A DNA stretch of 61,462 nucleotides from Negativicoccus succinicivorans (GCF_018373335.1 NZ_JAHAHH010000001.1:1-61462); one strand, 5' to 3'; positions 49,670-61,462 are shown, counted from the first letter of the stretch. Notes: generated by a model not told the origin, from the sequence alone. Numbers and translations: made by a program.

Positions 49670-49686
49670 AAATAAATACGCAATAG

Positions 49687-49711
49687 AAAAAGCCCCCGCG
49701 GGGGCTTTTTT
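49687..49711 (+). terminator. Intrinsic terminator after gyrA
   Basis: AAAAAGCCCC-CGC-GGGGCTTTTTT. Confidence 0.85.
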
Positions 49712-49799
49712 GTTTTCATAAATTTTATTTCACAAAAAATTTCTCTGAAAATCCGACACGTCTCCGACATAGAAGCCGGCAATGCGCGATGATTTTGCA

Positions 49800-49885: not shown

Positions 49886-50040
49886 ACGGTTGCTCAGTGA
49901 AAATACTTCAAAAACGCTTACTTCGCTCGTGTTACTTGGGAGAGCGAAACGGAATATGTTCCAAATGGAGCGCAGCGACAGAAATAACATACCCCGGGAC
50001 GAATAAAAAGTTTTGAAAAAAGTTGTTTAGGAGGACGATT

Positions 50041-50310
50041 ATGAAAAACAAAAATAAGGCGAACAAAAAAAATACGAGTGCGGTTATCGTCACGGAATCC
50101 GTGAAATCGGCGGAGTCTCAATCGGCTTCTTTGAAAAAAGAAGAAGTGCAAAACTTCACGGTTTTTTTGCCGAAAGAATTTCATCGTCGGCTGAAAATAT
50201 ATTCCATTGCCAACGATGAACAAATGGGTAATATTCTTTTGAACATCATTCGGCGCGGCGCGGAGGTCTATAAAAAAGACAACCCGGAATTTCCGGCGTG
50301 GGAACAATAG
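50041..50310 (+). CDS. Small ribbon-helix-helix-like DNA-binding protein (ParG/omega-like)
   Basis: AGGAGG RBS; flexible N-terminus then NFTVFLPKEFHRRLKIYS...MGNILLNII strand-helix-helix pattern. Confidence 0.6.
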   Translation: MKNKNKANKKNTSAVIVTESVKSAESQSASLKKEEVQNFTVFLPKEFHRRLKIYSIANDEQMGNILLNIIRRGAEVYKKDNPEFPAWEQ

Positions 50311-50430: not shown

Positions 50431-51642
50431 GTGAAAATGAATAGAGAAATTGTACTTCATTCCGCATGGTCTGAAAATGAAGAAATCGGAGCATTATATA
50501 TAAACCGGGAAGCGGGGAAAGAAAACTATTCTTTTTCGTATTCAGAAAAATGGTTAGAACGCCATTCTTCACTTTTTCTGGATTCTGAAATTCAACCTTT
50601 CCCCGGTCGTCAATATCCTGAAAAATCTTTATTTGGATGTTTGACCGATATGCAACCGGATCGTTGGGGCAGGCAACTGATTATTCGCCGGGAACTCAAT
50701 TCAGCTTTACAAGAAAAGCGACCGGTACGACCTCTTATGGAATCCGATTTTTTACTTGAGGTATCGGACTTTAGCAGGCAGGGCGGTATTCGGCTTGCTT
50801 TTGACGGAGAATTTCTTTCCCGATCAGAGTCGGAAGCACCGCCGATGACAAGGTTAAAAGCGTTACAAGATGCCGGTTGCTCTTTTCAAAGTAAAGATGA
50901 AAAAACAGACTGGATGAAAGAATTGGTACAGGCGGGCTCATCTTTAGGCGGAGCAAGACCGAAAGCCAATGTTACAGATGAAAACGGTTGCTTATGGATC
51001 GCTAAATTTTCTTCACTCCATGATATTTTCCGAGTGGAAAATTGGGAAGCGTTAACTTGTGAATTGGCCGCTTTATGTAACTTAACTGTTCCGGAAATAA
51101 AAACTGAAAAAATGGCCGATAACTTGATTTTTCTTACCAAGCGTTTTGATCGGGGAAACGAAAATCGCAAACATTTTATTTCTGCAATGACGGCATTAGG
51201 GAAAGCAGATGGCGATTCCGCGAGTTTTTTAGAAATTGCCGATTGGATCCGCCGTCATCAAAAAGACCCTACCGAAGACTTACAGGAATTATGGCGAAGA
51301 ATCGCTTTTTCCGTTCTTGTTTCTAATACCGACTGCCATTTACGCAATCACGGTTTCCTTTTGGAAAAGGATCAATGGCGTTTGTCGCCGATGTATGATG
51401 TAAATCCCAATCCGTTGGGAACATATATGACGTTAGCGATAGACGATAAAAATACCATCAAAGATATCCATACGGTTCTTCAAACGGCGCCTTTTTACGA
51501 AATTTCCGATGCGAAAGCGGAAATAGAAAAAATGCAAGCGACAATTCACGATCATTTTCAAAGATTGGCGGATAAATATTCGATTCCGCGTCAAGAAGCG
51601 CTTGCGATGCAACCGGCCTTCGGTATTTTTCAGGTGAACTGA
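50431..51642 (+). CDS. HipA family Ser/Thr kinase toxin
   Basis: PDRWGR, GSSLGGARPKA, WIAKF, KRFDR, NTDCHLRNHGF, LSPMYDVNP. Confidence 0.9.
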   Translation: MKMNREIVLHSAWSENEEIGALYINREAGKENYSFSYSEKWLERHSSLFLDSEIQPFPGRQYPEKSLFGCLTDMQPDRWGRQLIIRRELNSALQEKRPVRPLMESDFLLEVSDFSRQGGIRLAFDGEFLSRSESEAPPMTRLKALQDAGCSFQSKDEKTDWMKELVQAGSSLGGARPKANVTDENGCLWIAKFSSLHDIFRVENWEALTCELAALCNLTVPEIKTEKMADNLIFLTKRFDRGNENRKHFISAMTALGKADGDSASFLEIADWIRRHQKDPTEDLQELWRRIAFSVLVSNTDCHLRNHGFLLEKDQWRLSPMYDVNPNPLGTYMTLAIDDKNTIKDIHTVLQTAPFYEISDAKAEIEKMQATIHDHFQRLADKYSIPRQEALAMQPAFGIFQVN

Positions 51643-51785
51643 TCCACTCGTTTTCGGACGGCGACGGTCGTACCGACAGAGACGTAATCGCGCATGCTTG
51701 CGTGCAAGAAGGCATCTCGCCGATTGTCATTGCAAAAGAGCAGAGAAACGAATATATTCTCGCCCTATTGGTTTCGAGCGATTAA
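51642..51785 (+). pseudogene. Fic-domain gene fragment
   Basis: Frame from 51642 reads IHSFSDGDGRTDRDVIAHACVQEGISPIVIAKEQRNEYILAL, a decayed HPFxDGNGRxxR motif with no start. Confidence 0.7.
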
Positions 51786-52886
51786 CAGGTCTTCCGTTTT
51801 GGCAAATGTGCTCGCCACCAAGTCGCTTGCGCCGATTTTCGCCAGCCAAGGCGTGGCAAGCTCTGTTTCTAAATATCCGGCCAATATGCGTAGGCCTTTA
51901 TGTTCCATAACGGTTTTTATTTGAAATAATTGCTCATTAGAAAAAAGGTCGGGACGTCGGTTAATGAAAAACGCAAGATCGTAAAAATCGCGGATGTTTT
52001 CTTCTTTCGTGAACGCGGCCAGCTTCATGTCGATCAATACCTTCCAATCGTATACCGATACACTTTCTGTCTTGTTTATTTTGAAAACATCGGCCTCGAG
52101 CAATTTTTTATTCCGGTCGGAAATTTCCAATATTAACGGACAATCTCCGGCGTCCTTTTGACCTCCGTAATCAATGATGATTTTGACGACAGAATCCGCG
52201 CTTTCAAGAACGTGATATTTCCAGCGGTTTTCTTTTGCGATTTTTTGGAGAACTTTTTCTACCTTTGCCAAAGAGCCTTTGGTATCCAGCTCCAGCGCTT
52301 CTGAAAATCGATCCAGCTGATGAAAAAGCATGAGCGCGGCGCCGCCTTTTACAACATATTCATCTCCCAAATACGATAAGATTTTTTTCATAACGCGAAT
52401 TCGCTCTTGTTGCGAATGCGTTACATTGGTTACGTTGCGCGGCGCGTTTCGGTCATTCAAATATTTTTCCGGGTACTCTCGTCGCATGAACCAAGAAATG
52501 TCTTTTACGCTTTGAATTTGCTCAAGATACGAATATAATTTTTGATCTTCTTCCTGCGTCGACAAAAAATCTTTTCGGCAATCCAGCATTTGCATGGCGA
52601 GTTCCTTGGGTTGCGTCAAAATAAAATCGGCGATCGCTCTGGGAAAATCCGCGATAAAAACCTCTTTTGATCGATCATAAGGAATCATTCGTTTTGAAAT
52701 ACCGTTTTTCCCGAACAAATAAGAATTCGCATACAGAGGAATTGTCGGCTCTTTTTCCGTATATAACCAATAGTTAAGCGGGTGCCAATCGGCGGTGGTA
52801 ATCCCGTCCGGCGCGACAACATTTAACGCTTCCCACCCCGAGATGTATTTTTCTTCGGTCGTTGCGGGAATAATTTTCCACTTCAT
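51765..52886 (-). CDS. Fusion of an uncharacterised N-terminal domain to an AbiEii-type nucleotidyltransferase
   Basis: C-terminal half has KGGAALML...RFSEALELD and RDFYD; N-terminal half has YISGWEALN...ADWH...ADFPRAIAD; GGAGG RBS before ATG 52886. Confidence 0.78.
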   Translation of the reverse strand: MKWKIIPATTEEKYISGWEALNVVAPDGITTADWHPLNYWLYTEKEPTIPLYANSYLFGKNGISKRMIPYDRSKEVFIADFPRAIADFILTQPKELAMQMLDCRKDFLSTQEEDQKLYSYLEQIQSVKDISWFMRREYPEKYLNDRNAPRNVTNVTHSQQERIRVMKKILSYLGDEYVVKGGAALMLFHQLDRFSEALELDTKGSLAKVEKVLQKIAKENRWKYHVLESADSVVKIIIDYGGQKDAGDCPLILEISDRNKKLLEADVFKINKTESVSVYDWKVLIDMKLAAFTKEENIRDFYDLAFFINRRPDLFSNEQLFQIKTVMEHKGLRILAGYLETELATPWLAKIGASDLVASTFAKTEDLLIARNQ

Positions 52887-53141: not shown

Positions 53142-53864
53142 ATGGAAAATATTATTTTGGATCGTCTGCGCGGCGAAAAGAATTGCGGCATTTCCGGCGG
53201 ATTGTACGAATACACTAAAGTTTGGCTGACATATACTTCCAATGCGATTGAGGGCAGCACGGTCAGCTTGGAGGATACCCACGCCATTTTAACCACCGGA
53301 CGATTGAACGGCAAAGACTATCCGAAACTGAATGACGCGATTCAAACGCGTAATCATGGCATGGCATTCGATTACATGCTGGATATCGCGGAGCAAACGC
53401 TCACGGAAGAACAAGTAAAGCATTTTCATTACCTGCTGTTTTGGGGAACAGAGGAAGCGATGAAAACTTGGTTCGCCGTCGGCGATTATAAGAAAGAAGC
53501 CAATCGGATCGGCCTGCTGACCGAAACCTCATCGCCGGAAGAAACGCCGGAGCATATGAAAACATGGTTGCATGACTGTCAGGGTGAAAAAAATCCGCAA
53601 CTGAAAGAAATCGCTCTGGCGCATTACGGTTTTGAAACCATTCATCCGTTTCAAGACGGCAACGGTCGTGTCGGTCGCTTGATCATGTTCAAAGAGTGTT
53701 TGCATCACAACATTTCGCTGCTTATTATTACCCCGGAAATAAAGCCGTGGTATATGACCGCGCTCAATGAGTGCCGGCAAGGCTTGCAGAATCGTTTGTT
53801 TGAAACCTGCGGCAAAGCGCAAGATGACTATCAATTAATTTGCGCGAAATTCATAAGAGAGTAG
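53142..53864 (+). CDS. Fic family protein
   Basis: Canonical HPFQDGNGRVGR; inhibitory-type motif SNAIEG. Confidence 0.92.
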   Translation: MENIILDRLRGEKNCGISGGLYEYTKVWLTYTSNAIEGSTVSLEDTHAILTTGRLNGKDYPKLNDAIQTRNHGMAFDYMLDIAEQTLTEEQVKHFHYLLFWGTEEAMKTWFAVGDYKKEANRIGLLTETSSPEETPEHMKTWLHDCQGEKNPQLKEIALAHYGFETIHPFQDGNGRVGRLIMFKECLHHNISLLIITPEIKPWYMTALNECRQGLQNRLFETCGKAQDDYQLICAKFIRE

Positions 53865-53930: not shown

Positions 53931-54194
53931 ATGTTAAAAGCATATATCAGAGAAGCCTATCCCATCCCACAAAATTTATCTGGGGAAATAAAAGAATATG
54001 TTGATCGGTTAGAAGAATTATATGTCATTCTAAACAATATGAGTGACAAAGTGAGTGACGAAGATCCCGAATACATGTCCTTACTTTGGGAATATGAAGA
54101 TAAACAGCAATGGCTGGGTATAATGGCGAAAACCAAAGAAGGCATATCGCAAGAGGATTTTGATGCTTTATATTTCAGATACTATATCAGTTAA
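53931..54194 (+). CDS. Small helical protein (group A, copy 1)
   Basis: AGGAGG RBS; paralog of 57778-58056 (AYIRE..P...EI.E.VD.LE.L...PEY...E...WL.I.AK...FRYY). Confidence 0.75.
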   Translation: MLKAYIREAYPIPQNLSGEIKEYVDRLEELYVILNNMSDKVSDEDPEYMSLLWEYEDKQQWLGIMAKTKEGISQEDFDALYFRYYIS

Positions 54195-54196
54195 AC

Positions 54197-54328
54197 GAAA
54201 CTTTCCCGATATATAACCGGCGGATAAAGAAAGAAATCACCGCAGTGGAGGCCTTTTATACATCAGGCGTTTCAAAAAACTTTTATCGCAGGGTCAGACA
54301 ATACGAACGAGAGGTGTACCGGCAATGA
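54197..54328 (+). pseudogene. 3' fragment of a serine recombinase (resolvase) HTH domain
   Basis: ETFPIYNRRIKKEITAVEAFYTSGVSKNFYRRVRQYEREVYRQ*; its stop overlaps the kinase ATG (ATGA). Confidence 0.6.
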
Positions 54329-55728
54329 ACACGTTTTTATTAATGCATAAAAATATTGAAGTTTTAGAGATACGAAAAGAACCGGATATGGATTATTTCC
54401 GAATAAATTCCATCATCAATGCGGAACATTTGCCGGTGAACATGCTGGGGAAAAATAAATGCAATACCCATGAATTGAATCAGTTTTTGAAACATAGGGT
54501 TATTCCTAAAAGTCGACCTAACATTGAGGAAATAAAGAAATATTACCGAGCAAACAGTTCGTATGAGTTGGCCTTACCGTCCTATATGGTCAGTATCGCC
54601 GACCATTATTGGCTTTGTCCGGAAGATAAAAAACAAGACTTGAATTGGGAAAAAGTAAATTTCTATGACAATGATTTTTCATCAGACTTATTATTTTTAT
54701 CATCAGATGAATCAAGCCTTGATGAAAGCGAGCGAATGAATCCAACTCCCAACACAACCAATAACGGTTCATTACCTCAAATGTGGACAAAGAAAGACAG
54801 TGATCTGTTTTTTATAAAAAACGGGCAAAGGTCTTTTTATCAACAGCCTTATAACGAAGCCGTAATTTCGGACATAATGAAGGCTATGAATATGCCCGGT
54901 GTTACGTATGACTTGTCTTATATAGCGGCGGCGGATGTATCGATATGTCCGTCATTCACAAATTCGCGAATTGAATTTATTCCGGCATGGCAGTTTGATG
55001 TTAACCAAAAACTGAACCATGAAAGTTATTACGAATATTATCTGAAAAAAATAACCGAGTGCGGTATGGATCAGGAACGGGCGCGTAAGCAGCTGGAACA
55101 AATGATTATACTTGATTTTATTTGTGTGAATGAGGATCGTCATTGGGGAAATTTTGGCGTTTTGCGAGACAGTGATACCTTGGAATATATCGGACTTGCG
55201 CCCATTTTTGATAATGGCACCAGTTTAGGATATATGAACTTATCAATACGGAATCATCAGATTTATGAACGCTCCAAATCATTCGGCAATACCCATCAAA
55301 ACGAATTAAAATTTATTCGTCATATGGACATGGATTCGTTGGACATCTGTGATAAAATACCGGAAATTTTGGACAGAAATTATAAAAAGTTGCGACACCC
55401 CGCCTTTGGGGAAGAACGCGTTGAAGAGATAGCCACGTTACTGGTAGAAAGGATTCACGACATGGGAAAAGAAAAGGAAAGCAAAAAATCGGCGATTCGT
55501 GTTGCAAAGTCCATCGAGGAAAAGGAAATGGAACCGGAGTTCGATGAAAGAGCCTTGCCGAAAGACCTGCAACAAGATATCCAAAATTGGTTAGATCATC
55601 AAGACGATGATTTAAGATGGGATGTTTATCATAATGAGCTTTACGGCACGATTAACATGTATCAACACGCGCATGTAATCAGTGAAGAAGTCGCGGATTA
55701 TTTACGAAAAAAGTATTTGGGATTTTAG
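54325..55728 (+). CDS. HipA-superfamily kinase 1 with fused C-terminal small helical domain (group B)
   Basis: SIADHYW, FIKNG, QPYNE, NEDRHWGNFG, LAPIFDNGTSL; tail LPKDLQ...ELYGTIN...ISEEVADYLRKKYLGF. Confidence 0.85.
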   Translation: MNTFLLMHKNIEVLEIRKEPDMDYFRINSIINAEHLPVNMLGKNKCNTHELNQFLKHRVIPKSRPNIEEIKKYYRANSSYELALPSYMVSIADHYWLCPEDKKQDLNWEKVNFYDNDFSSDLLFLSSDESSLDESERMNPTPNTTNNGSLPQMWTKKDSDLFFIKNGQRSFYQQPYNEAVISDIMKAMNMPGVTYDLSYIAAADVSICPSFTNSRIEFIPAWQFDVNQKLNHESYYEYYLKKITECGMDQERARKQLEQMIILDFICVNEDRHWGNFGVLRDSDTLEYIGLAPIFDNGTSLGYMNLSIRNHQIYERSKSFGNTHQNELKFIRHMDMDSLDICDKIPEILDRNYKKLRHPAFGEERVEEIATLLVERIHDMGKEKESKKSAIRVAKSIEEKEMEPEFDERALPKDLQQDIQNWLDHQDDDLRWDVYHNELYGTINMYQHAHVISEEVADYLRKKYLGF

Positions 55729-55736
55729 GAGGTAAC

Positions 55737-55949
55737 ATGGACATAAAAATTCCTAAGTATCTGCAAGATACACTGGATAAGCAAAAACGATTGGTAGCAG
55801 AATATGAAAAAACAAAAGACGCAGAATCAAGTATTGCTGTTTCTTTTGTTTGGGAAGAAGTATATGTTGATATTAATCACGCATTAACAAATGATGCGAT
55901 TACCGAAGACGAAGCACGCGCTCTGCGAAAAAAGTATTTAGGAATTTAG
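55737..55949 (+). CDS. Small helical protein (group B, copy 2)
   Basis: AGGAGG RBS; IPKYLQ...EVYVDIN...ITEDEARALRKKYLGI. Confidence 0.8.
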   Translation: MDIKIPKYLQDTLDKQKRLVAEYEKTKDAESSIAVSFVWEEVYVDINHALTNDAITEDEARALRKKYLGI

Positions 55950-55983
55950 AAGATTACCACGATTGTACATAAGGAGAAAAAGA

Positions 55984-56253
55984 ATGAACATTGAAAAAAT
56001 GCGCATTCCCAATTCGTTACAAGAACAAATCAAAAAAATAAAGTTGCTAGAAAGTGAAATAAAAAAAGGTGGTGAAAAAGGTTTGGAGGCAGAATGTATG
56101 TTAGGTTTTGAGTTAGGAAATATTCATCCAACTATCAATCGATGCTTAATGGCAGGCGAGATAACACCGGAGGAATCGCATTTTTTACACGAAAAATATT
56201 GTGTTGAATTTATAGAAGAGGTGTTACACAATTATGAAATCTATAATAATTGA
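55984..56253 (+). CDS. Small helical protein (group B, copy 3)
   Basis: AAGGAG RBS; IPNSLQ...IHPTIN...ITPEESHFLHEKY; overlaps the start of kinase 2. Confidence 0.75.
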   Translation: MNIEKMRIPNSLQEQIKKIKLLESEIKKGGEKGLEAECMLGFELGNIHPTINRCLMAGEITPEESHFLHEKYCVEFIEEVLHNYEIYNN

Positions 56254-57181
56254 TTTTACGCACTTTGAAAAAATCACTCCCCTTCGATTTGACGGAGCAA
56301 GTTATAAATATGCCGTTCAAGGAAACGATTCTCTATATATTTTGAAGTTTGAAGAATATCCCCGGCGCAAAGCTTCCGTTTCACACACGCATCATCACAC
56401 ATCGGAATATATCGGATCCCATATTTATGAGTCGATCGGATTACCGACACAAGAAACTTTTTTAGTAAAACGAGATGACAGAATCGCCGTTGCCTGCAAA
56501 CATTTTTGCCAAGGAAATACGCGGTTGTATTCGTTCAAAGAATTGGCCACCGATTTTATGCATCCGTCCATTTCAAAAAACAGCGCATCACAAGCGATTA
56601 CCACTCTTGAGGGCACGCTGGAACTCATTTCAAAGCAAACTGTTTTTCAACCTGAGGTCTTAACCGACAGATATTGGGACATGTTTGTTGTGGATGCGTT
56701 TATTGCTAATTCGGATCGTCATAACGGGAACTGGGGATATTTGGTCGACAACCATACATTTGAAGTTTCTTTAGCGCCGATATATGATTGCGGATCCTCT
56801 CTTTACCCGCTTTTAACAAATGAAGAGATGCGGATCTGCTTACAAAACGAAAGCATGATGAAACAACTTTCCGCCAATGAACCGTCTTCTACCGTTCGTT
56901 ATAAGGGAGCTAAAATTAACTTTTTGGATTTTTGTCGGAATTACGAAAATCCTGACTTTCTCGCTGCCGTAAAACGAATCGTGCCGCGAATTGATATGGA
57001 TGCTATCAAAGCGATTATCACCCATACTCCCGTCATTACAGAGATCAGACAAGAATTTCTGATTCATTTATTGACATTGCGAAAGGAACTGCTTTTAGAG
57101 CCGGCCTTAAAGCGCGCCATGAAAGCGGAAAAGATTTCGTTTAATGAATCCGAGTCGATCGACAAAGGTTTGGAACGCTGA
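56234..57181 (+). CDS. CtkA/HipA-like kinase 2
   Basis: YILKF, SEYIGSHIY, VACKHF, WDMFVVDAFIANSDRHNGNWG, LAPIYDCGSSL. Confidence 0.87.
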   Translation: MKSIIIDFTHFEKITPLRFDGASYKYAVQGNDSLYILKFEEYPRRKASVSHTHHHTSEYIGSHIYESIGLPTQETFLVKRDDRIAVACKHFCQGNTRLYSFKELATDFMHPSISKNSASQAITTLEGTLELISKQTVFQPEVLTDRYWDMFVVDAFIANSDRHNGNWGYLVDNHTFEVSLAPIYDCGSSLYPLLTNEEMRICLQNESMMKQLSANEPSSTVRYKGAKINFLDFCRNYENPDFLAAVKRIVPRIDMDAIKAIITHTPVITEIRQEFLIHLLTLRKELLLEPALKRAMKAEKISFNESESIDKGLER

Positions 57182-57217
57182 GCGTATTCGGCGATGCGCG
57201 AGTTTCGACAAGAGAAT

Positions 57218-57275
57218 AACATGCGCATGTAATCCGTGAAGAAGTCGCGATTATTTACGCAGGAAATATTTAGAA
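57218..57275 (+). pseudogene. Decayed copy of the 3' end of the group B domain
   Basis: Aligns to 55664-55722 (40 of the first 43 columns identical, one 1-nt deletion). Confidence 0.75.
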
Positions 57276-57303
57276 TGAAACAAATGAAAAGGGAGGTAGA
57301 ACG

Positions 57304-57675
57304 ATGAGAACGTTAAGTCTATCTGAAATAAAAGAACGAATTATTCCCGTTTGCGAAAAGTACGATATACCGGAAGTACATATTTTCGGATCGTATGCCG
57401 ACGGAACGGCCCGACCGGACAGTGATGTTGATTTAATTATTGATGATTCAAACATTCCGGGCCTTTTTGAACTCATAGATGTAATTGAAGGGTTTGAAAA
57501 AGCATTAAGTAAAAAAGTTGACTTGGTGGGTATTGAAGTACTAAAAAGAAAATCACATACTAGATTCAGTCAAAATGTTTTTAAGGTGGCAAAACCGATT
57601 TTCAAAAAGGAAGAAGATTGCGCAGGAAAAGCATTTGACGATGCGCGACATGTTCATGAGCCGGATCGGCCGTGA
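57304..57675 (+). CDS. Minimal nucleotidyltransferase (MNT/MntA-like)
   Basis: IFGSYADG...DSDVDL, KKVDLV; GGAGG RBS. Confidence 0.88.
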   Translation: MRTLSLSEIKERIIPVCEKYDIPEVHIFGSYADGTARPDSDVDLIIDDSNIPGLFELIDVIEGFEKALSKKVDLVGIEVLKRKSHTRFSQNVFKVAKPIFKKEEDCAGKAFDDARHVHEPDRP

Positions 57676-57777
57676 TGAAATAAGCATCAACGTAAAGGCG
57701 CGAACGGAAAAGCGGCATTGATCTTTTCATCACGCCGCATACATACGCGAATATTTCGGTGCAAAGGAGGGGCGCAG

Positions 57778-58056
57778 ATGTTTCGAGCCTATATTCGAGA
57801 AGATATTGTTTTACCCGAACGGAAATCAAAAGAAATTCAAGAACTGGTGGATACGCTGGAACGCTTGCATATCGAATTGCAATCCATGGATCCGCGCGCG
57901 CCGGAATACACAAGAAAGATAGAAGAGTTTGAAGATGCCAATGAATGGCTGGATATCGCCGCAAAGCTCGACAATAAAGTCGATCGCCAAGCGTATGCCC
58001 GATATTGTTTCCGTTACTATGTGGGGGTTGTGGAAGATGACGATCAAGATGCATGA
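57778..58056 (+). CDS. Small helical protein (group A, copy 2)
   Basis: AAGGAGG RBS; paralog of 53931-54194; overlaps the start of kinase 3. Confidence 0.75.
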   Translation: MFRAYIREDIVLPERKSKEIQELVDTLERLHIELQSMDPRAPEYTRKIEEFEDANEWLDIAAKLDNKVDRQAYARYCFRYYVGVVEDDDQDA

Positions 58057-59011
58057 TTTTACTGAAAATAAAGCGATTCCCCCGAGTACTTACGGGGGCA
58101 AAACAGGAGCAAAGTTATGCGTTTTACATCATGATGAAATGTGGTTTTTAAAATTTCCGCAAACGTTATCCCGTCAAGGCGCCGTATTGTCGTATCCCAC
58201 CATGCCCGTTTCGGAATTTTTAGGATCGCAAATATATAAAAGCATCGGCATTGATACGCATGATACCGAATTGGGGATATATAAAGATCGGCCCGTCGTT
58301 GCTTGCAAAGACTTTATTCCATCGGGGAGTAAGTTTTATGAATTTAAGGGCTTATTCAATGCCTTGCCGGCGATAAAGTCTTTACAGTCCACGCGATTTG
58401 GAAATGCGCCATCATTGCATAAGGTAGAATTATCTGACATTTTTGAGGAAATCGAAATTACCTTTGCGCCATCAGCGCAAGAAAAAATGAAGGAACGTTT
58501 TTGGGATATGTTTGTAGTGGACTGTTTTATCAACAACAAAGACCGTAATACCGGAAATTGGGGATATTTTATGAATTTGACCGGGGACTTTGTAGGATTA
58601 GCTCCGGTGTATGACAACGGCAGTTCGTTTTTCCCGAAAGCCGATTCGCGAAAATGCGGTGAAAAAGAATTTCTTGACAAGAGCATTCGGAAGGGTAAAA
58701 CTTCTTTTTTCTACAATGGAAAAGCAGTCGACAGTGTTTCGGTCATGAGGAAAACGCCCTGTCCGTTTCAAGAAGAGGCGCTTAACTCGGGTTTGCAAAA
58801 AGCGATTTTGAAAATAACGCCTCGATTATCCGTCAATATGGACGCATTTCAAAATTTGATTTCCGATATGCCTTTAGATTTCAAAGGCGTTCCGATTATC
58901 TCGGAATCTCGAAAAGCGTTTTATCAAAACTTTTTATCGAAACGGCTGGAGCTGGTTTTGGAGCCGGCGTGGAAACGGGTCATGGAGATCACGGAAGACG
59001 AGAATGCTTGA
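58037..59011 (+). CDS. CtkA/HipA-like kinase 3
   Basis: YGGKTGAK, WFLKFP, SEFLGSQIY, VVACKDF, NKDRNTGNWG, LAPVYDNGSSF; start at 58037 or 58049. Confidence 0.87.
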   Translation: MTIKMHDFTENKAIPPSTYGGKTGAKLCVLHHDEMWFLKFPQTLSRQGAVLSYPTMPVSEFLGSQIYKSIGIDTHDTELGIYKDRPVVACKDFIPSGSKFYEFKGLFNALPAIKSLQSTRFGNAPSLHKVELSDIFEEIEITFAPSAQEKMKERFWDMFVVDCFINNKDRNTGNWGYFMNLTGDFVGLAPVYDNGSSFFPKADSRKCGEKEFLDKSIRKGKTSFFYNGKAVDSVSVMRKTPCPFQEEALNSGLQKAILKITPRLSVNMDAFQNLISDMPLDFKGVPIISESRKAFYQNFLSKRLELVLEPAWKRVMEITEDENA

Positions 59012-59100
59012 TTTCAAGAACTAAAAAAACTTGCTTTGCTCCCATTTATGTCGGCGGCGCTTCTCTATATCCTCTTTTCCGTTTTTTATCGAAATTATAA
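59011..59100 (+). pseudogene. Internal fragment of a further CtkA-like kinase
   Basis: Reads ISRTKKTCFAPIYVGGASLYPLF, compare kinase 2 LAPIYDCGSSLYPLL. Confidence 0.55.
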
Positions 59101-59154
59101 ATCCGGTCCTGCTCATTTCTTAAAAGTGCTCGCGCCGGATGGAGGCGGCTTATC

Positions 59155-60357
59155 GTGTATCTTCTGCGCAATAAAGACAAAAATCTTTTAACCTTTCAAA
59201 TCATCAAAAAAGAAACGGAAGACGCGTCTCCGGCAACAACGACGTCGCAAGTTGGCGTCGCGTATCAAGTCCGCATCGATTCGCTATGTGAAGATGTCGC
59301 GCGACTGCCGCTGCCAATGCAGGGGGAAACCGTCGGCGCGGAAGAATTGGATCAACGCTTAGAAAACTGGCTCAAATCAAGAAAAGCGCCGGAGAGCAGA
59401 GCGTTCGCGGATTGTCTCATGAAGGCGATTGACTCCGGCGCGAATCCGTTTGCGTATATCGATGTTACTTACGGACTTTCGCTTAACGATTCGTTTTGGG
59501 TTTGTCCGGTAAGGGAACGCGATGTATCCTGGGATGCGGTCAATGCATATCAAAACGCATTTGACGACCGAGTCGCGCGGCTCGCGTTTACCGGCGTCGG
59601 CGGTCGGATTGACGGCGTGACGACGACGCCGGAATTTACGACAGGCGGCGCATTGCGGAAATGTTGGCAACGGGAAAATAAGCGGATCTATTTATATAAA
59701 GGCGGCACTGAACGCTTCGCGAATGGCGGGCTGGAGCCGTACATGGAAACATTCGCGGCGGAAATCGCCACGGCGATGAATTTGAGCCATGTTCCCTACG
59801 AACTGACGGAACTTTATGGCGTTTCCGTCAGCAAATGCCCGCTTTTTACGGATGAAAACACCGGCTTTGTTTCGATGTATGATGCGCTGGGCACGGAATA
59901 TTTTCAAACCCGTTCGCTAAATGATCCGCGAACATGGGAAACCATCGGCGAAAGATACGGCATGGCGCAGTGGGAAGATATGCTTTTGTTTGACGCGGTG
60001 ATCGCCAATGAAGATCGACACTTAGGCAACTTCGGATTTTTGCTGGACACCAATAGTAATTGCCTGAAAGGTCCCGCGCCGCTCTTTGACCACGGGAACG
60101 CTCTCTTTTTCAACGCCACCGATGAGGAATTTGCCGATATTTTTGAATATGCGCCGACCCGTCGCAGTTGTATCGGATTGCCGTTTGAAGAACAAGCGAA
60201 CCTTTTTTTGCGCCGTCGTCATTTGTCCGGCTTACAAAAGTTGGCAAAACTGACACTGCCGCGGTATAAAGATCCGCATATCGATTTCATCGCGACGCAA
60301 TTAGAAAAGTATCTGCATCGTATATCCGAGAAGTTGGTTCGGTTGTATAAAGAATAA
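59155..60357 (+). CDS. HipA-superfamily kinase 4
   Basis: GLSLNDSFW, TTGGALRKCW, LYKGG, EPYME, NEDRHLGNFG, APLFDHGNAL; GTG start after GGAGG. Confidence 0.87.
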   Translation: MYLLRNKDKNLLTFQIIKKETEDASPATTTSQVGVAYQVRIDSLCEDVARLPLPMQGETVGAEELDQRLENWLKSRKAPESRAFADCLMKAIDSGANPFAYIDVTYGLSLNDSFWVCPVRERDVSWDAVNAYQNAFDDRVARLAFTGVGGRIDGVTTTPEFTTGGALRKCWQRENKRIYLYKGGTERFANGGLEPYMETFAAEIATAMNLSHVPYELTELYGVSVSKCPLFTDENTGFVSMYDALGTEYFQTRSLNDPRTWETIGERYGMAQWEDMLLFDAVIANEDRHLGNFGFLLDTNSNCLKGPAPLFDHGNALFFNATDEEFADIFEYAPTRRSCIGLPFEEQANLFLRRRHLSGLQKLAKLTLPRYKDPHIDFIATQLEKYLHRISEKLVRLYKE

Positions 60358-60431: not shown

Positions 60432-60595
60432 AAAGATGCAGGAGCACCATAAAACCAACAAAAGGAAATGAAAAGAGATGGCGGCTACCATCCCTTTTCT
60501 CTTGCTTATTTATTTCGCCTTTCTAGCAGCCAGTGCAGTATGATTGCCAGAGAGGGCGCGAGCAAGGTCGCGCCTGCAAGAAAATCTACGGAGCA

Positions 60596-60629
60596 GCAAA
60601 AAGGACGGGAAAACTCCCGTCCTTTTTGC
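60596..60629. terminator. Bidirectional intrinsic terminator
   Basis: GCAAAAAGGACGGGA-AAAC-TCCCGTCCTTTTTGC. Confidence 0.8.
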
Positions 60630-60733
60630 TTACATATTTTATTATTAATAATGATGCTTTCCGAACCTACAGGATTATATTTTTACGCGTTACAGAGCAT
60701 GGCACGGATTTTATCGGGAACTTGATTTCCGAC

Positions 60734-61462
60734 TTACTTTTCTAAAAAGGAACGTATCTCCGTGACGGTTGCTTCATTAATTTCGGAAACGTCTTTTTGT
60801 TGTTCCGCATCCAGCATCTCGCGAATAAATGCTTGCTGTTGATGCAAATCTCGCGTTTCCGTTTCCGTTAACGGTCGTGACCATTCGTGATCAATAGCGG
60901 CCGTGATTTCATCCGGATTGTTTTGGGAACGGAAAAGTTCTCCGGCGCGGTTGCATACGACGATTTCGTTGAAACATTTCGTGTCCGCCAGATAAATAAG
61001 ATTTTCTTTTAACTGCGAAACCACTAAATCATGGTGCTTTTTATCCACGGTGCGGGCATTGTCTTGCTGCAATCCTTGAAACAGTCTTGTCATGGTACCG
61101 GTGAAGCTGACTTCCGGCTTCATCGCCATGACATACAGATCGACTTCATATCTGTTCGCGCGCAAGCGGTTCGCGGTTCGTTCGGGCACTTCCGTTGTCC
61201 GCAGCGTTCCCTCAATCAGCAAGTTGTATTTTTCTTTTGCCAGCCGCTCAATTAATGCTTCCGTGATCGCGCCCGACCATTGGGCGGTGTGTTTCGGGTG
61301 ATCCGATCCGTATTCTCTTTGAATTTCCGTGTAATGCGGATGCGAATCGCGAAACTCGTCGGTATTCAGAAATATAAAGTTATTATCTTTACGATTGACG
61401 AGTTTCACAATGCTGCTTTTGCCGCTCCCGGGTTGCCCGCCGGTGAGAATGGCGCGCGGGTT
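60734..61462 (-). CDS. Zeta toxin (PezT-like) family P-loop kinase, 5' end beyond window
   Basis: Frame stays open to the window end: NPRAILTGGQPGSGKS Walker A, NTDEFRDSHPHY, IEGTLRT. Confidence 0.88.
   Translation of the reverse strand, partial: NPRAILTGGQPGSGKSSIVKLVNRKDNNFIFLNTDEFRDSHPHYTEIQREYGSDHPKHTAQWSGAITEALIERLAKEKYNLLIEGTLRTTEVPERTANRLRANRYEVDLYVMAMKPEVSFTGTMTRLFQGLQQDNARTVDKKHHDLVVSQLKENLIYLADTKCFNEIVVCNRAGELFRSQNNPDEITAAIDHEWSRPLTETETRDLHQQQAFIREMLDAEQQKDVSEINEATVTEIRSFLEK

Follow-up and report, generated by a model that had tools for sequence, protein, structure and literature searches.

The 61,462-nucleotide window analysed here, from Negativicoccus succinicivorans (NZ_JAHAHH010000001.1:1-61462 of GCF_018373335.1), contains an array of four HipA-like kinase genes (K1 to K4) and several genes for small helical proteins of two groups, A and B (Table 1). 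The order is A1, a resolvase remnant, K1 with its fused C-terminal tail, B1, B2, K2, a remnant of the tail gene, a nucleotidyltransferase gene of the minimal (MNT) type, A2, K3 and K4. All of the open reading frames (ORFs) lie where a first-pass annotation, made from the sequence alone, had placed them, but the strict alternation of kinases and small units that it described is refuted by the gene order: K4 has no small partner, and the MNT gene and two gene remnants had been overlooked. Two overlaps that it reported are present, of 20 nt between B2 and K2 and of 8 nt between A2 and K3 (the K3 start at 58049 was chosen from homologues). The array comprises variants of the predicted hipRG pair without a helix-turn-helix (HTH), a second pair whose partner belongs to a narrow and divergent family, and two long kinases.

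Table 1. Genes and gene remnants of the kinase array, followed by those of the surrounding island (window positions).
Feature	Position	Strand	Evidence
A1, group A small helical protein, 87 aa; orphan here	53931-54194	+	Sequence; relatives L136, L144
Serine resolvase gene, 3'-end remnant	54202-54316	+	blastn 76-80% to resolvase end in L003, L133, L134, L143
K1, long HipA_C kinase, 467 aa, HipF-class-like, C-terminal group-B domain fused	54325-55728	+	Pfam HipA_C E 1.6e-7
K1 tail, group-B domain	55534-55728	+	B profile E 2.2e-25
B1, three-helix group-B protein, 70 aa, likely K2 partner	55737-55949	+	Gene order in relatives; model pLDDT 95
B2, divergent group-B protein, 89 aa, probably orphan	55984-56253	+	B profile E 3.0e-14
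K2, CtkA/HipG-type short kinase, 315 aa	56234-57181	+	PDB 3AKJ (CtkA) E 4.7e-52; Pfam HipA_C E 2.7e-13
K1-tail gene, 3'-end remnant	57217-57271	+	93% identity over 43 nt to 55663-55705
MNT-type minimal nucleotidyltransferase, no HEPN gene adjoining	57304-57675	+	Pfam Polbeta E 1.2e-13; NCBIfam MntA E 4e-11 (under cut-off)
A2, group A small helical protein, 92 aa, likely K3 partner	57778-58056	+	Gene order in relatives; model pLDDT 91
K3, CtkA-type short kinase, 320 aa, divergent DRNTGN clade	58049-59011	+	34% to K2; homologue alignment; Pfam HipA_C E 2.2e-9
K4, long HipA_C-like kinase, 400 aa, HipF-class-like, without small partner	59155-60357	+	Pfam HipA_C E 1.1e-3 (under curated cut-off); 26% to K1
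Canonical HipA	50431-51642	+	Family scans (Pfam, PADLOC)
AbiEi-AbiEii fusion	51765-52886	-	Family scans (Pfam, PADLOC)
Fic-domain gene, first in array of most relatives	53142-53864	+	Pfam Fic E 4.8e-18; PADLOC PDC-S04
Zeta-toxin (PezT-like) gene, closing end of array, cut by window end	60734-61462	-	Pfam Zeta_toxin E 6.9e-40

Group B is a widespread three-helix domain without an entry in Pfam, NCBIfam or PHROGs. Searching with a profile of eight sequences gave, at E up to 0.001, at least 165 clusters (50% identity); of these, 150 were taken further, less three long spurious matches. None of the 46 members scanned matched a Pfam family over the B domain, five of these 46 have an N-terminal HTH_26 above the cut-off, and 0 of 103 members matched NCBIfam or PHROGs.

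The link between this domain and CtkA-type kinases was measured in loci sampled without regard to kinases. A DNA pattern of the conserved B end, searched in species-representative genomes, gave at least 119 stretches, with flanks for 80 and a B-profile match in 79; the pattern covers part of the family, related protein patterns fitting 45 to 79 of 146 members. A CtkA-type kinase ORF lies directly downstream on the same strand in 60 of the 79 loci, an association that the first-pass annotation had anticipated. Nearly all of these kinases (55/60) are at least 270 aa long, and clustering at 80%, 70% and 60% identity sorts the 60 into 43, 16 and 8 groups. XRE-type HTH fusions account for 49 of the 79 B genes. 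Of the 60 kinase-linked B genes, 19 have no HTH, and for 15 of these the upstream DNA is complete and shows no trace of one. What stays constant beside the kinase is B rather than the HTH.

Other samples were drawn from genomes, viral contigs and plasmids. An even sample of 400 genomes of the phylum has B in four, a full-length K2-type kinase in four and both, adjacent, in three (from three families), a co-occurrence with a hypergeometric probability of 1.5e-6, whose significance is exaggerated by kinship among the genomes; downstream of the fourth kinase lies a gene in a hipMP-like arrangement. Among 201 genomes of Campylobacterales, five have the kinase, and in four of the five a B gene adjoins it (three upstream, one downstream; one is the seed genome). 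Viral contigs, searched from the kinase, have an adjacent B gene in 11 of 12 loci (10 upstream, one weak and B-like downstream) and another small helical gene in the twelfth; here the query came from B-linked kinases and is biased toward B, and one weak partial match of 13 loci was set aside. In the same direction, three of four plasmid records gave one kinase with B, one with a tandem pair of small genes that scores above all 300 shuffles on the B profile, and one with neither. Distances among B domains and among their kinases correlate (rho 0.82 in 38 outside pairs, 0 of 999 permutations).

Several further observations concern the distribution of these genes. The Campylobacterales loci L168-L171 and L187 carry pairs of an HTH-less B gene and a CtkA-type kinase, some followed by Fic, and their B looks nearest to the K1 tail. 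A third kind of small helical gene, weakly B-like, lies upstream of divergent CtkA-type kinases (L188:1982-2508, L182:2289-2501) and occurs in tandem on a Selenomonas plasmid with an adjoining recombinase. The B domain is also found behind VapD-like (P0042) and metallophosphoesterase-like (P0159) domains, both by eye, and behind DUF7695 (P0033); a metallophosphoesterase adjoins two kinase-linked loci. We considered whether B might be a promiscuous antitoxin for many toxin types and rejected this: of the 19 kinase-less loci, three have adjoining kinase fragments, one is at a contig edge, one has a Fic-like gene downstream, and the others share no neighbour by eye.

All four kinases in the window keep the catalytic loop (DRHWGN, DRHNGN, DRNTGN, DRHLGN) and the APxxDxG motif, as first noted, and they fall into two classes. 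K2 and K3 are ~320 aa long, and their Lys, Glu, catalytic Asp/Asn and APxxDxG are all retained; K2 aligns with the CtkA structure over residues 6-297. The DRNTGN variant is found in 4/4 aligned members of the K3 clade, and at the Gly-rich loop the alignment reads DGAS in K2 and GGKT in K3. K1 and K4 (~400 aa, aligned over 372 aa) are a separate class of longer kinases, unrelated to the short kinases of the cassettes and partnerless in relatives. Eight of the 400 phylum genomes have relatives of K1 and K4, and none of their nine loci (one cut by a contig end) has a B, A or HipR-type HTH match within ~1.5 kb, leaving B or A as a partner of this class unsupported. The fusion of K1 to a group-B domain recurs in L003, L132 and L134.

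Group A, a family of limited spread, occupies the corresponding position ahead of K3-type kinases. Wider searches for it gave 12 proteins, matches in three of eight genomes of the bacterial family, five metagenome loci and 0 of the 400 phylum genomes. In five relatives (L132, L133, L135, L143, L145) the gene that follows A directly is a K3-type kinase, full or cut by the contig end; in L136 and L144 A1 is followed by a K3-like gene fragment, and in L003 and L134 an A gene is followed by a resolvase. The expected link of group A to kinases is thus seen in relatives, for the K3 clade. An alternative description of A as a resolvase-linked gene is true of two assemblies only and was dropped. At L144:5722-7680 (genome G003), a TIR-like, caspase-like, TIR-like trio (by eye) lies upstream of A1 and the broken K3-like gene.

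Within the small units, shuffling tests bear out the kinship of A1 and A2 (z 24, 0/1000 shuffles as high), of B1 and B2 (z 14, 0/1000) and of the K1 tail and B1 (z 6, 0/1000); that of the tail and B2, which the first-pass annotation had also placed in group B, is weak (16/1000). B1 and B2 score 69 and 53 bits on the B profile. The likeness between groups A and B is one of shape: models of B1 (helices at 7-26, 29-51 and 57-68) and of A2 (which adds two terminal strands), both from AlphaFold2, have a long-long-short helix pattern in common, whereas the sequence similarity is not significant (49 to 699 of 1000 shuffles; hhalign probability 1.8%). All five units are acidic, B1 barely so (D+E 14, K+R 11), and no HTH family of Pfam or NCBIfam was matched on B1, B2, the tail, A1 or A2, both as described at the outset. 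The five units gave nothing above the cut-off in Pfam or NCBIfam, no match to Couple_hipA and no PADLOC model at E 0.01; in the ESM Atlas, B1 returned sub-0.9 leads only and A1 nothing. No fold is assigned, because fold searches with B1 and A2 gave generic helical matches only (best Z 8.2 and 7.0; no Foldseek match at E 0.001). The B profile hit one weak, unrelated sequence in the PDB (E 0.032), and no solved B structure was found.

We modelled K2 (residues 1-300) with B1, supplying our own alignments for both proteins. The complex scored 0.80, 0.80 and 0.75, and the best of three controls 0.00; among solved pairs 116 of 157 attain the score mark, and among mismatched pairs 2 of 215, both counts being rough since the alignments are self-supplied. 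At least 80% of contacts agree among the runs, and the partner pLDDT is 86-87. The model supports the predicted binding, and recall of a like complex is unlikely, no solved B structure having been found. It cannot separate B1 from B2 or the tail, because close cousins of a true partner also pass. In the model, helix 2 of B1 touches the K2 catalytic loop (160-166) and C-lobe (188-202, 208-227), and V44 contacts S160 and the catalytic D161. Across 142 members scored, the residue equivalent to V44 is Gly in 84, Ser in 26, Ala in 22, Thr in 6 and another in 4; since it is small and mostly non-phosphorylatable (Gly or Ala in 106), the position appears pseudosubstrate-like. The next residue is Ser/Thr in 98/142 and Asp/Glu in 31/142, which keeps a substrate reading alive; B1 itself has Val-Asp at the two positions. 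Relative to the allele common to three relatives, the window's B1 differs at 11 of 22 predicted interface positions and at 6-7 of 48 elsewhere; from this one comparison, the divergence may reflect specificity drift or a B1 that came from another cassette.

Gene orders in relatives suggest how the array came about. L132 reads Fic, resolvase, K1 with tail, B1, K2, free tail gene, MNT, A2, K3, K4 and zeta, and L133 reads Fic, resolvase, free tail gene, B1, K2, tail remnant, B2, a further kinase, A2, K3, K4 and zeta. That further kinase is 43% identical to K2 and absent from the window. G003 has resolvase, free tail gene, MNT, A2 and K3, and G002 resembles the window minus A2 and K3. In L132, L133 and L143 the tail of K1 stands alone as a gene with a start of its own, and at the site of the resolvase remnant the same three have an intact resolvase ORF (identified by sequence motif rather than family scan). 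The MNT gene lies 3' of the free tail gene in L132 and L143, and P0116 fuses an MNT-like fragment to a B domain (by eye). B1 accompanies K2 in 5/5 assemblies, and B2 is missing beside K2 in L132; contigs of runs X1 and X2, from one study, join B1 to K2 and a K2 remnant to B2. The orphan copies that had been proposed are borne out, as B2's neighbour elsewhere is a different kinase that is missing here, and A1 is an orphan here; B2, A1 and the free tail gene also occur without their kinase in some assemblies. Junction sequences indicate that the first codons of K2 derive from the kinase that follows B2 in L133. The window's junctions lie in short repeats, ~24 nt common to the 3' ends of B genes and 8 nt common to the 5' ends of kinase genes, and recombination at these repeats would produce the window's order.

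The array sits within an island. The contig (C133) is part of a 1.3-Mb genome in which housekeeping genes extend to gyrA; past the gyrA terminator, GC content drops from ~52% to 38-46%, and the match to five related genomes stops there. The terminator hairpin at 49686-49726, which marks the left border of the island, is also found elsewhere in related genomes. Besides the kinase array with its MNT nucleotidyltransferase, the island encodes a canonical HipA, an AbiEi-AbiEii fusion, Fic and a zeta toxin. We conclude that the array is mobile, because in G003 it lies near 30 kb and gyrA near 993 kb, and because G001, of the same genus, has no match to A, B or the short kinases. A small ORF (50023-50310) precedes the canonical HipA, in HipB's place; it looks ribbon-helix-helix-like by eye and has no convincing family match. 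AbiEi (PADLOC, 12-147) and AbiEii (156-359) share a single 373-aa ORF, of which G002 retains only a fragment. A 16-pair hairpin (60595-60630) between K4 and the convergent zeta gene is a likely bidirectional terminator. Promoter and terminator scans were uninformative (35 and 21 sites against 24 and 14 expected), and RNA-library contigs come from one study and cannot serve as proof of transcription.

The basic module has a precedent. Gerdes, Baerentsen and Brodersen (2021; PMC8262856) defined hipRG, hipRF and hipMP modules in silico, without experiment; Table 1 of that paper records none for clade XI, so that toxicity and neutralisation of hipRG kinases are in silico proposals there. In its Table S1, 5/5 hipRG rows pair a kinase like the B-linked ones with an HTH protein that ends, by eye, in the B motif, and group B therefore corresponds, by motif, to the C-terminal half of HipR. 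The accessible text calls HipR Stl-like with an N-terminal HTH and does not single out its C-terminal domain. K2 and K3 fit the hipRG kinase type (~279-321 aa, no N-subdomain), and K2 is 33-38% identical to such kinases from outside loci. B1 and B2, upstream of K2, match the HipR C-terminal domain, a likeness that does not extend to K3, which has group A upstream. Unlike HipR, the units here have no HTH; K2 and K3 have Ser/Thr beside the Gly-rich loop, a residue that HipG is said to lack; and the paper's accessible sections describe single pairs, in contrast to the shuffled arrays here.

By eye only, K1 and K4 resemble the 14 hipRF kinase rows of the same source in length, N-terminal extension and motif. 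Neither has an HTH gene beside it, and the HipR proteins listed as HipF partners show no B motif, whereas K1 has a B domain fused. Helicobacter pylori CtkA (JHP0940) is homologous to K2, and each of the two lies on a mobile element close to Fic genes; the accessible text of PMC5536186 names no partner. In HipBST of Escherichia coli O127, a small protein neutralises a short kinase by touching its active site directly (PMC10627512), the site at which B1 is modelled here. According to the accessible part of that report, HipS is homologous to the N-subdomain of HipA and acts by driving a Trp into the Gly-rich loop. B consists of helices only, without a Couple_hipA match, and its modelled seat is the catalytic loop and C-lobe. 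Neither a HipB-type HTH nor a HipS homologue is present among the small units. The kinases match component A of the PADLOC candidate system PDC-M03 (PDC-M03A, E down to 4e-33), and its partner component is unmatched on the small units. Orphan partners in variable arrays recall polymorphic toxin-immunity systems, to which a putative immunity function would belong, although by Pfam no kinase here has a delivery domain. This study adds the minimal partner domain, the prediction that it sits at the active site, a connection to the CtkA family, and shuffling that leaves orphans behind. Our literature searches, whose coverage leaves out most subscription papers and bioRxiv supplements, found no work on hipRG or hipRF later than PMC8262856 and no printed link between the CtkA family and toxin-antitoxin systems; passages of the NetFlax paper (PMC10440598) mention neither CtkA nor HipT.

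So, is this a toxin-antitoxin array? We think it probable that it forms part of a mobile toxin-antitoxin island made of cassettes, each pairing a small three-helix protein with a CtkA/HipG-type kinase that the small protein inhibits at the active site. A toxin-antitoxin setting is favoured by the other genes of the island: HipA, AbiE, Fic, MNT and zeta. The core units would be the two-gene cassettes B1-K2 and A2-K3, joined elsewhere by B2 and the further kinase. In each, the small protein would be made first from the same operon and bind its own kinase, with helix 2 lying across the catalytic loop like a pseudosubstrate and keeping the kinase off. Loss or dilution of the small protein, through loss of the element, stress or perhaps phage, would leave the kinase to phosphorylate a cellular target and slow growth, as HipA-family toxins do; the targets known for that family are aminoacyl-tRNA synthetases. 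Group B would then be the neutralising half of HipR minus its DNA-binding HTH, and group A a diverged or unrelated protein with an equivalent job for the K3 clade. K1 and K4 presumably need no partner, K1 having gained a B gene by fusion, and recombination at the short repeats would permute the cassettes and leave orphans. The proposal in the first-pass annotation of a new, non-HipB antitoxin family survives in part: B is linked to kinases and probably binds them, and A is linked to the K3 clade. It fails in that the family is not undescribed as a whole, given the C-terminal domain of HipR and its HTH fusions, and in that only two of the four kinases are in pairs.

A number of observations weigh against this account. 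The correlated distances of B and kinase are a sign of co-inheritance, not contact, and the active-site placement of B in the model fits a substrate as well as an inhibitor. Nineteen of the 79 B genes have no intact kinase downstream, and CtkA-type kinases without a B or A neighbour exist (L172, L186). Homology between A and B was undetected by shuffles, hhalign or profile scores. Against the three relatives, K2 changes at 2-3 of 34 interface positions, which is odd for a strictly cognate pair given the divergence of B1. In G006, A is frameshifted and the kinase frame open, though this may be an assembly error, the intact form being P0021. The gene ctkA, closely related to K2, has been expressed constitutively, alone and N-terminally tagged, in four ctkA-negative H. 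pylori strains, and harm to growth is unmentioned in the accessible text (PMC5536186). Published toxicity or rescue for a family member was not found in our searches.

Some of these points would suit a non-toxic regulatory pair, in which the kinase binds or phosphorylates, or is regulated by, a mostly XRE-fused B and so controls transcription or transfer of the element, the array being a pile of such modules. The frequency of HTH fusions agrees with this, as do the modelled seat at the catalytic loop beside a residue that is often Ser/Thr, the tolerance of orphan B genes and a frameshifted A, and that of H. pylori for CtkA alone. Kinase-repressor pairs upstream of immune operons are also in print (CapK/CapS; PMC13373217, in its accessible part). 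We nevertheless consider such a role unlikely: there is no HTH to be regulated in at least 15 of 60 kinase-linked B genes or in any B gene of the array, the residue opposite the catalytic Asp is predominantly one that cannot be phosphorylated, B1 carries Val-Asp, and the island is rich in toxin-antitoxin genes.

An anti-phage, abortive-infection array, in which infection releases the kinases and their diversity records an arms race with phage triggers, is rather doubtful. It would accommodate the PDC-M03A matches and the type I restriction genes that adjoin the array in relatives (L003, from the ORF list), and activation by phage through HipR was proposed by Gerdes and colleagues (PMC8262856, accessible text). 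Five of the 99 ORFs that flank kinase-linked loci are clearly of defence type (Schlafen/AlbA (2), TIR, GmrSD, BrxA). However, 13 of the same 99, in 11 loci, are mobility genes (NikA/MobC 6, recombinase or integrase 3, and a relaxase, a transposase, TnpV and Toprim), so that maintenance of mobile DNA is better supported than defence. No other PADLOC system component scored on the small proteins, and in the accessible literature that we searched PDC-M03 appears in a phage genome report only.

Export of the kinases into neighbouring cells, for example by a conjugative type IV system, with the small proteins as immunity factors and the orphans protective, seems to us very unlikely. Its model is CtkA, a pro-inflammatory kinase that depends, for its activity on host cells, on the type IV system tfs3 and on its own 23 C-terminal residues (PMC5536186); orphan partners, a B1 allele with a variable interface and the many pairs that adjoin mobilisation genes would fit. 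Yet the accessible text of the same paper calls that tail peculiar to Helicobacter, and the C-terminal tails of the kinases compared are short, charged and unconserved (0-26 residues; 9 in K2 of L132), with a median of 15 both near and away from mobility genes, which led us to reject tail length as an export signal. Pfam finds no delivery or secretion domain on any of the kinases (the contig stops before the remainder of the element), and short-repeat recombination would explain the orphans. That the small genes are passengers of mobile elements with no functional tie to kinases is barely credible: A-type genes before a resolvase and the free tail gene before MNT could be so read, but the linkage spans Bacillota, Campylobacterota and others, three of four carriers in the 400 genomes have both genes adjacent, and K2 and B1 are modelled as a complex.

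The toxin-antitoxin reading has a bolder extension, which we regard as improbable: that the CtkA family consists at root of bacterial kinase toxins under a stand-alone three-helix pseudosubstrate inhibitor, that mobile elements bring these kinases into other cells or force them on those cells, and that strains collect and reshuffle orphan inhibitors with variable faces, making a polymorphic toxin-immunity system with a new class of kinase inhibitor. The findings turn a five-row, in silico hipRG prediction into a testable mechanism with a named minimal partner domain. The predicted block of the active site would be a mode unlike those of HipB and HipS, and the family of H. pylori CtkA becomes tied to predicted toxin-antitoxin modules. 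As one locus holds several kinases, cognate and orphan partners and natural variants of the interface, specificity could be mapped there, and a 70-residue helical inhibitor of an atypical Ser/Thr kinase would, if true, be a useful structural model.

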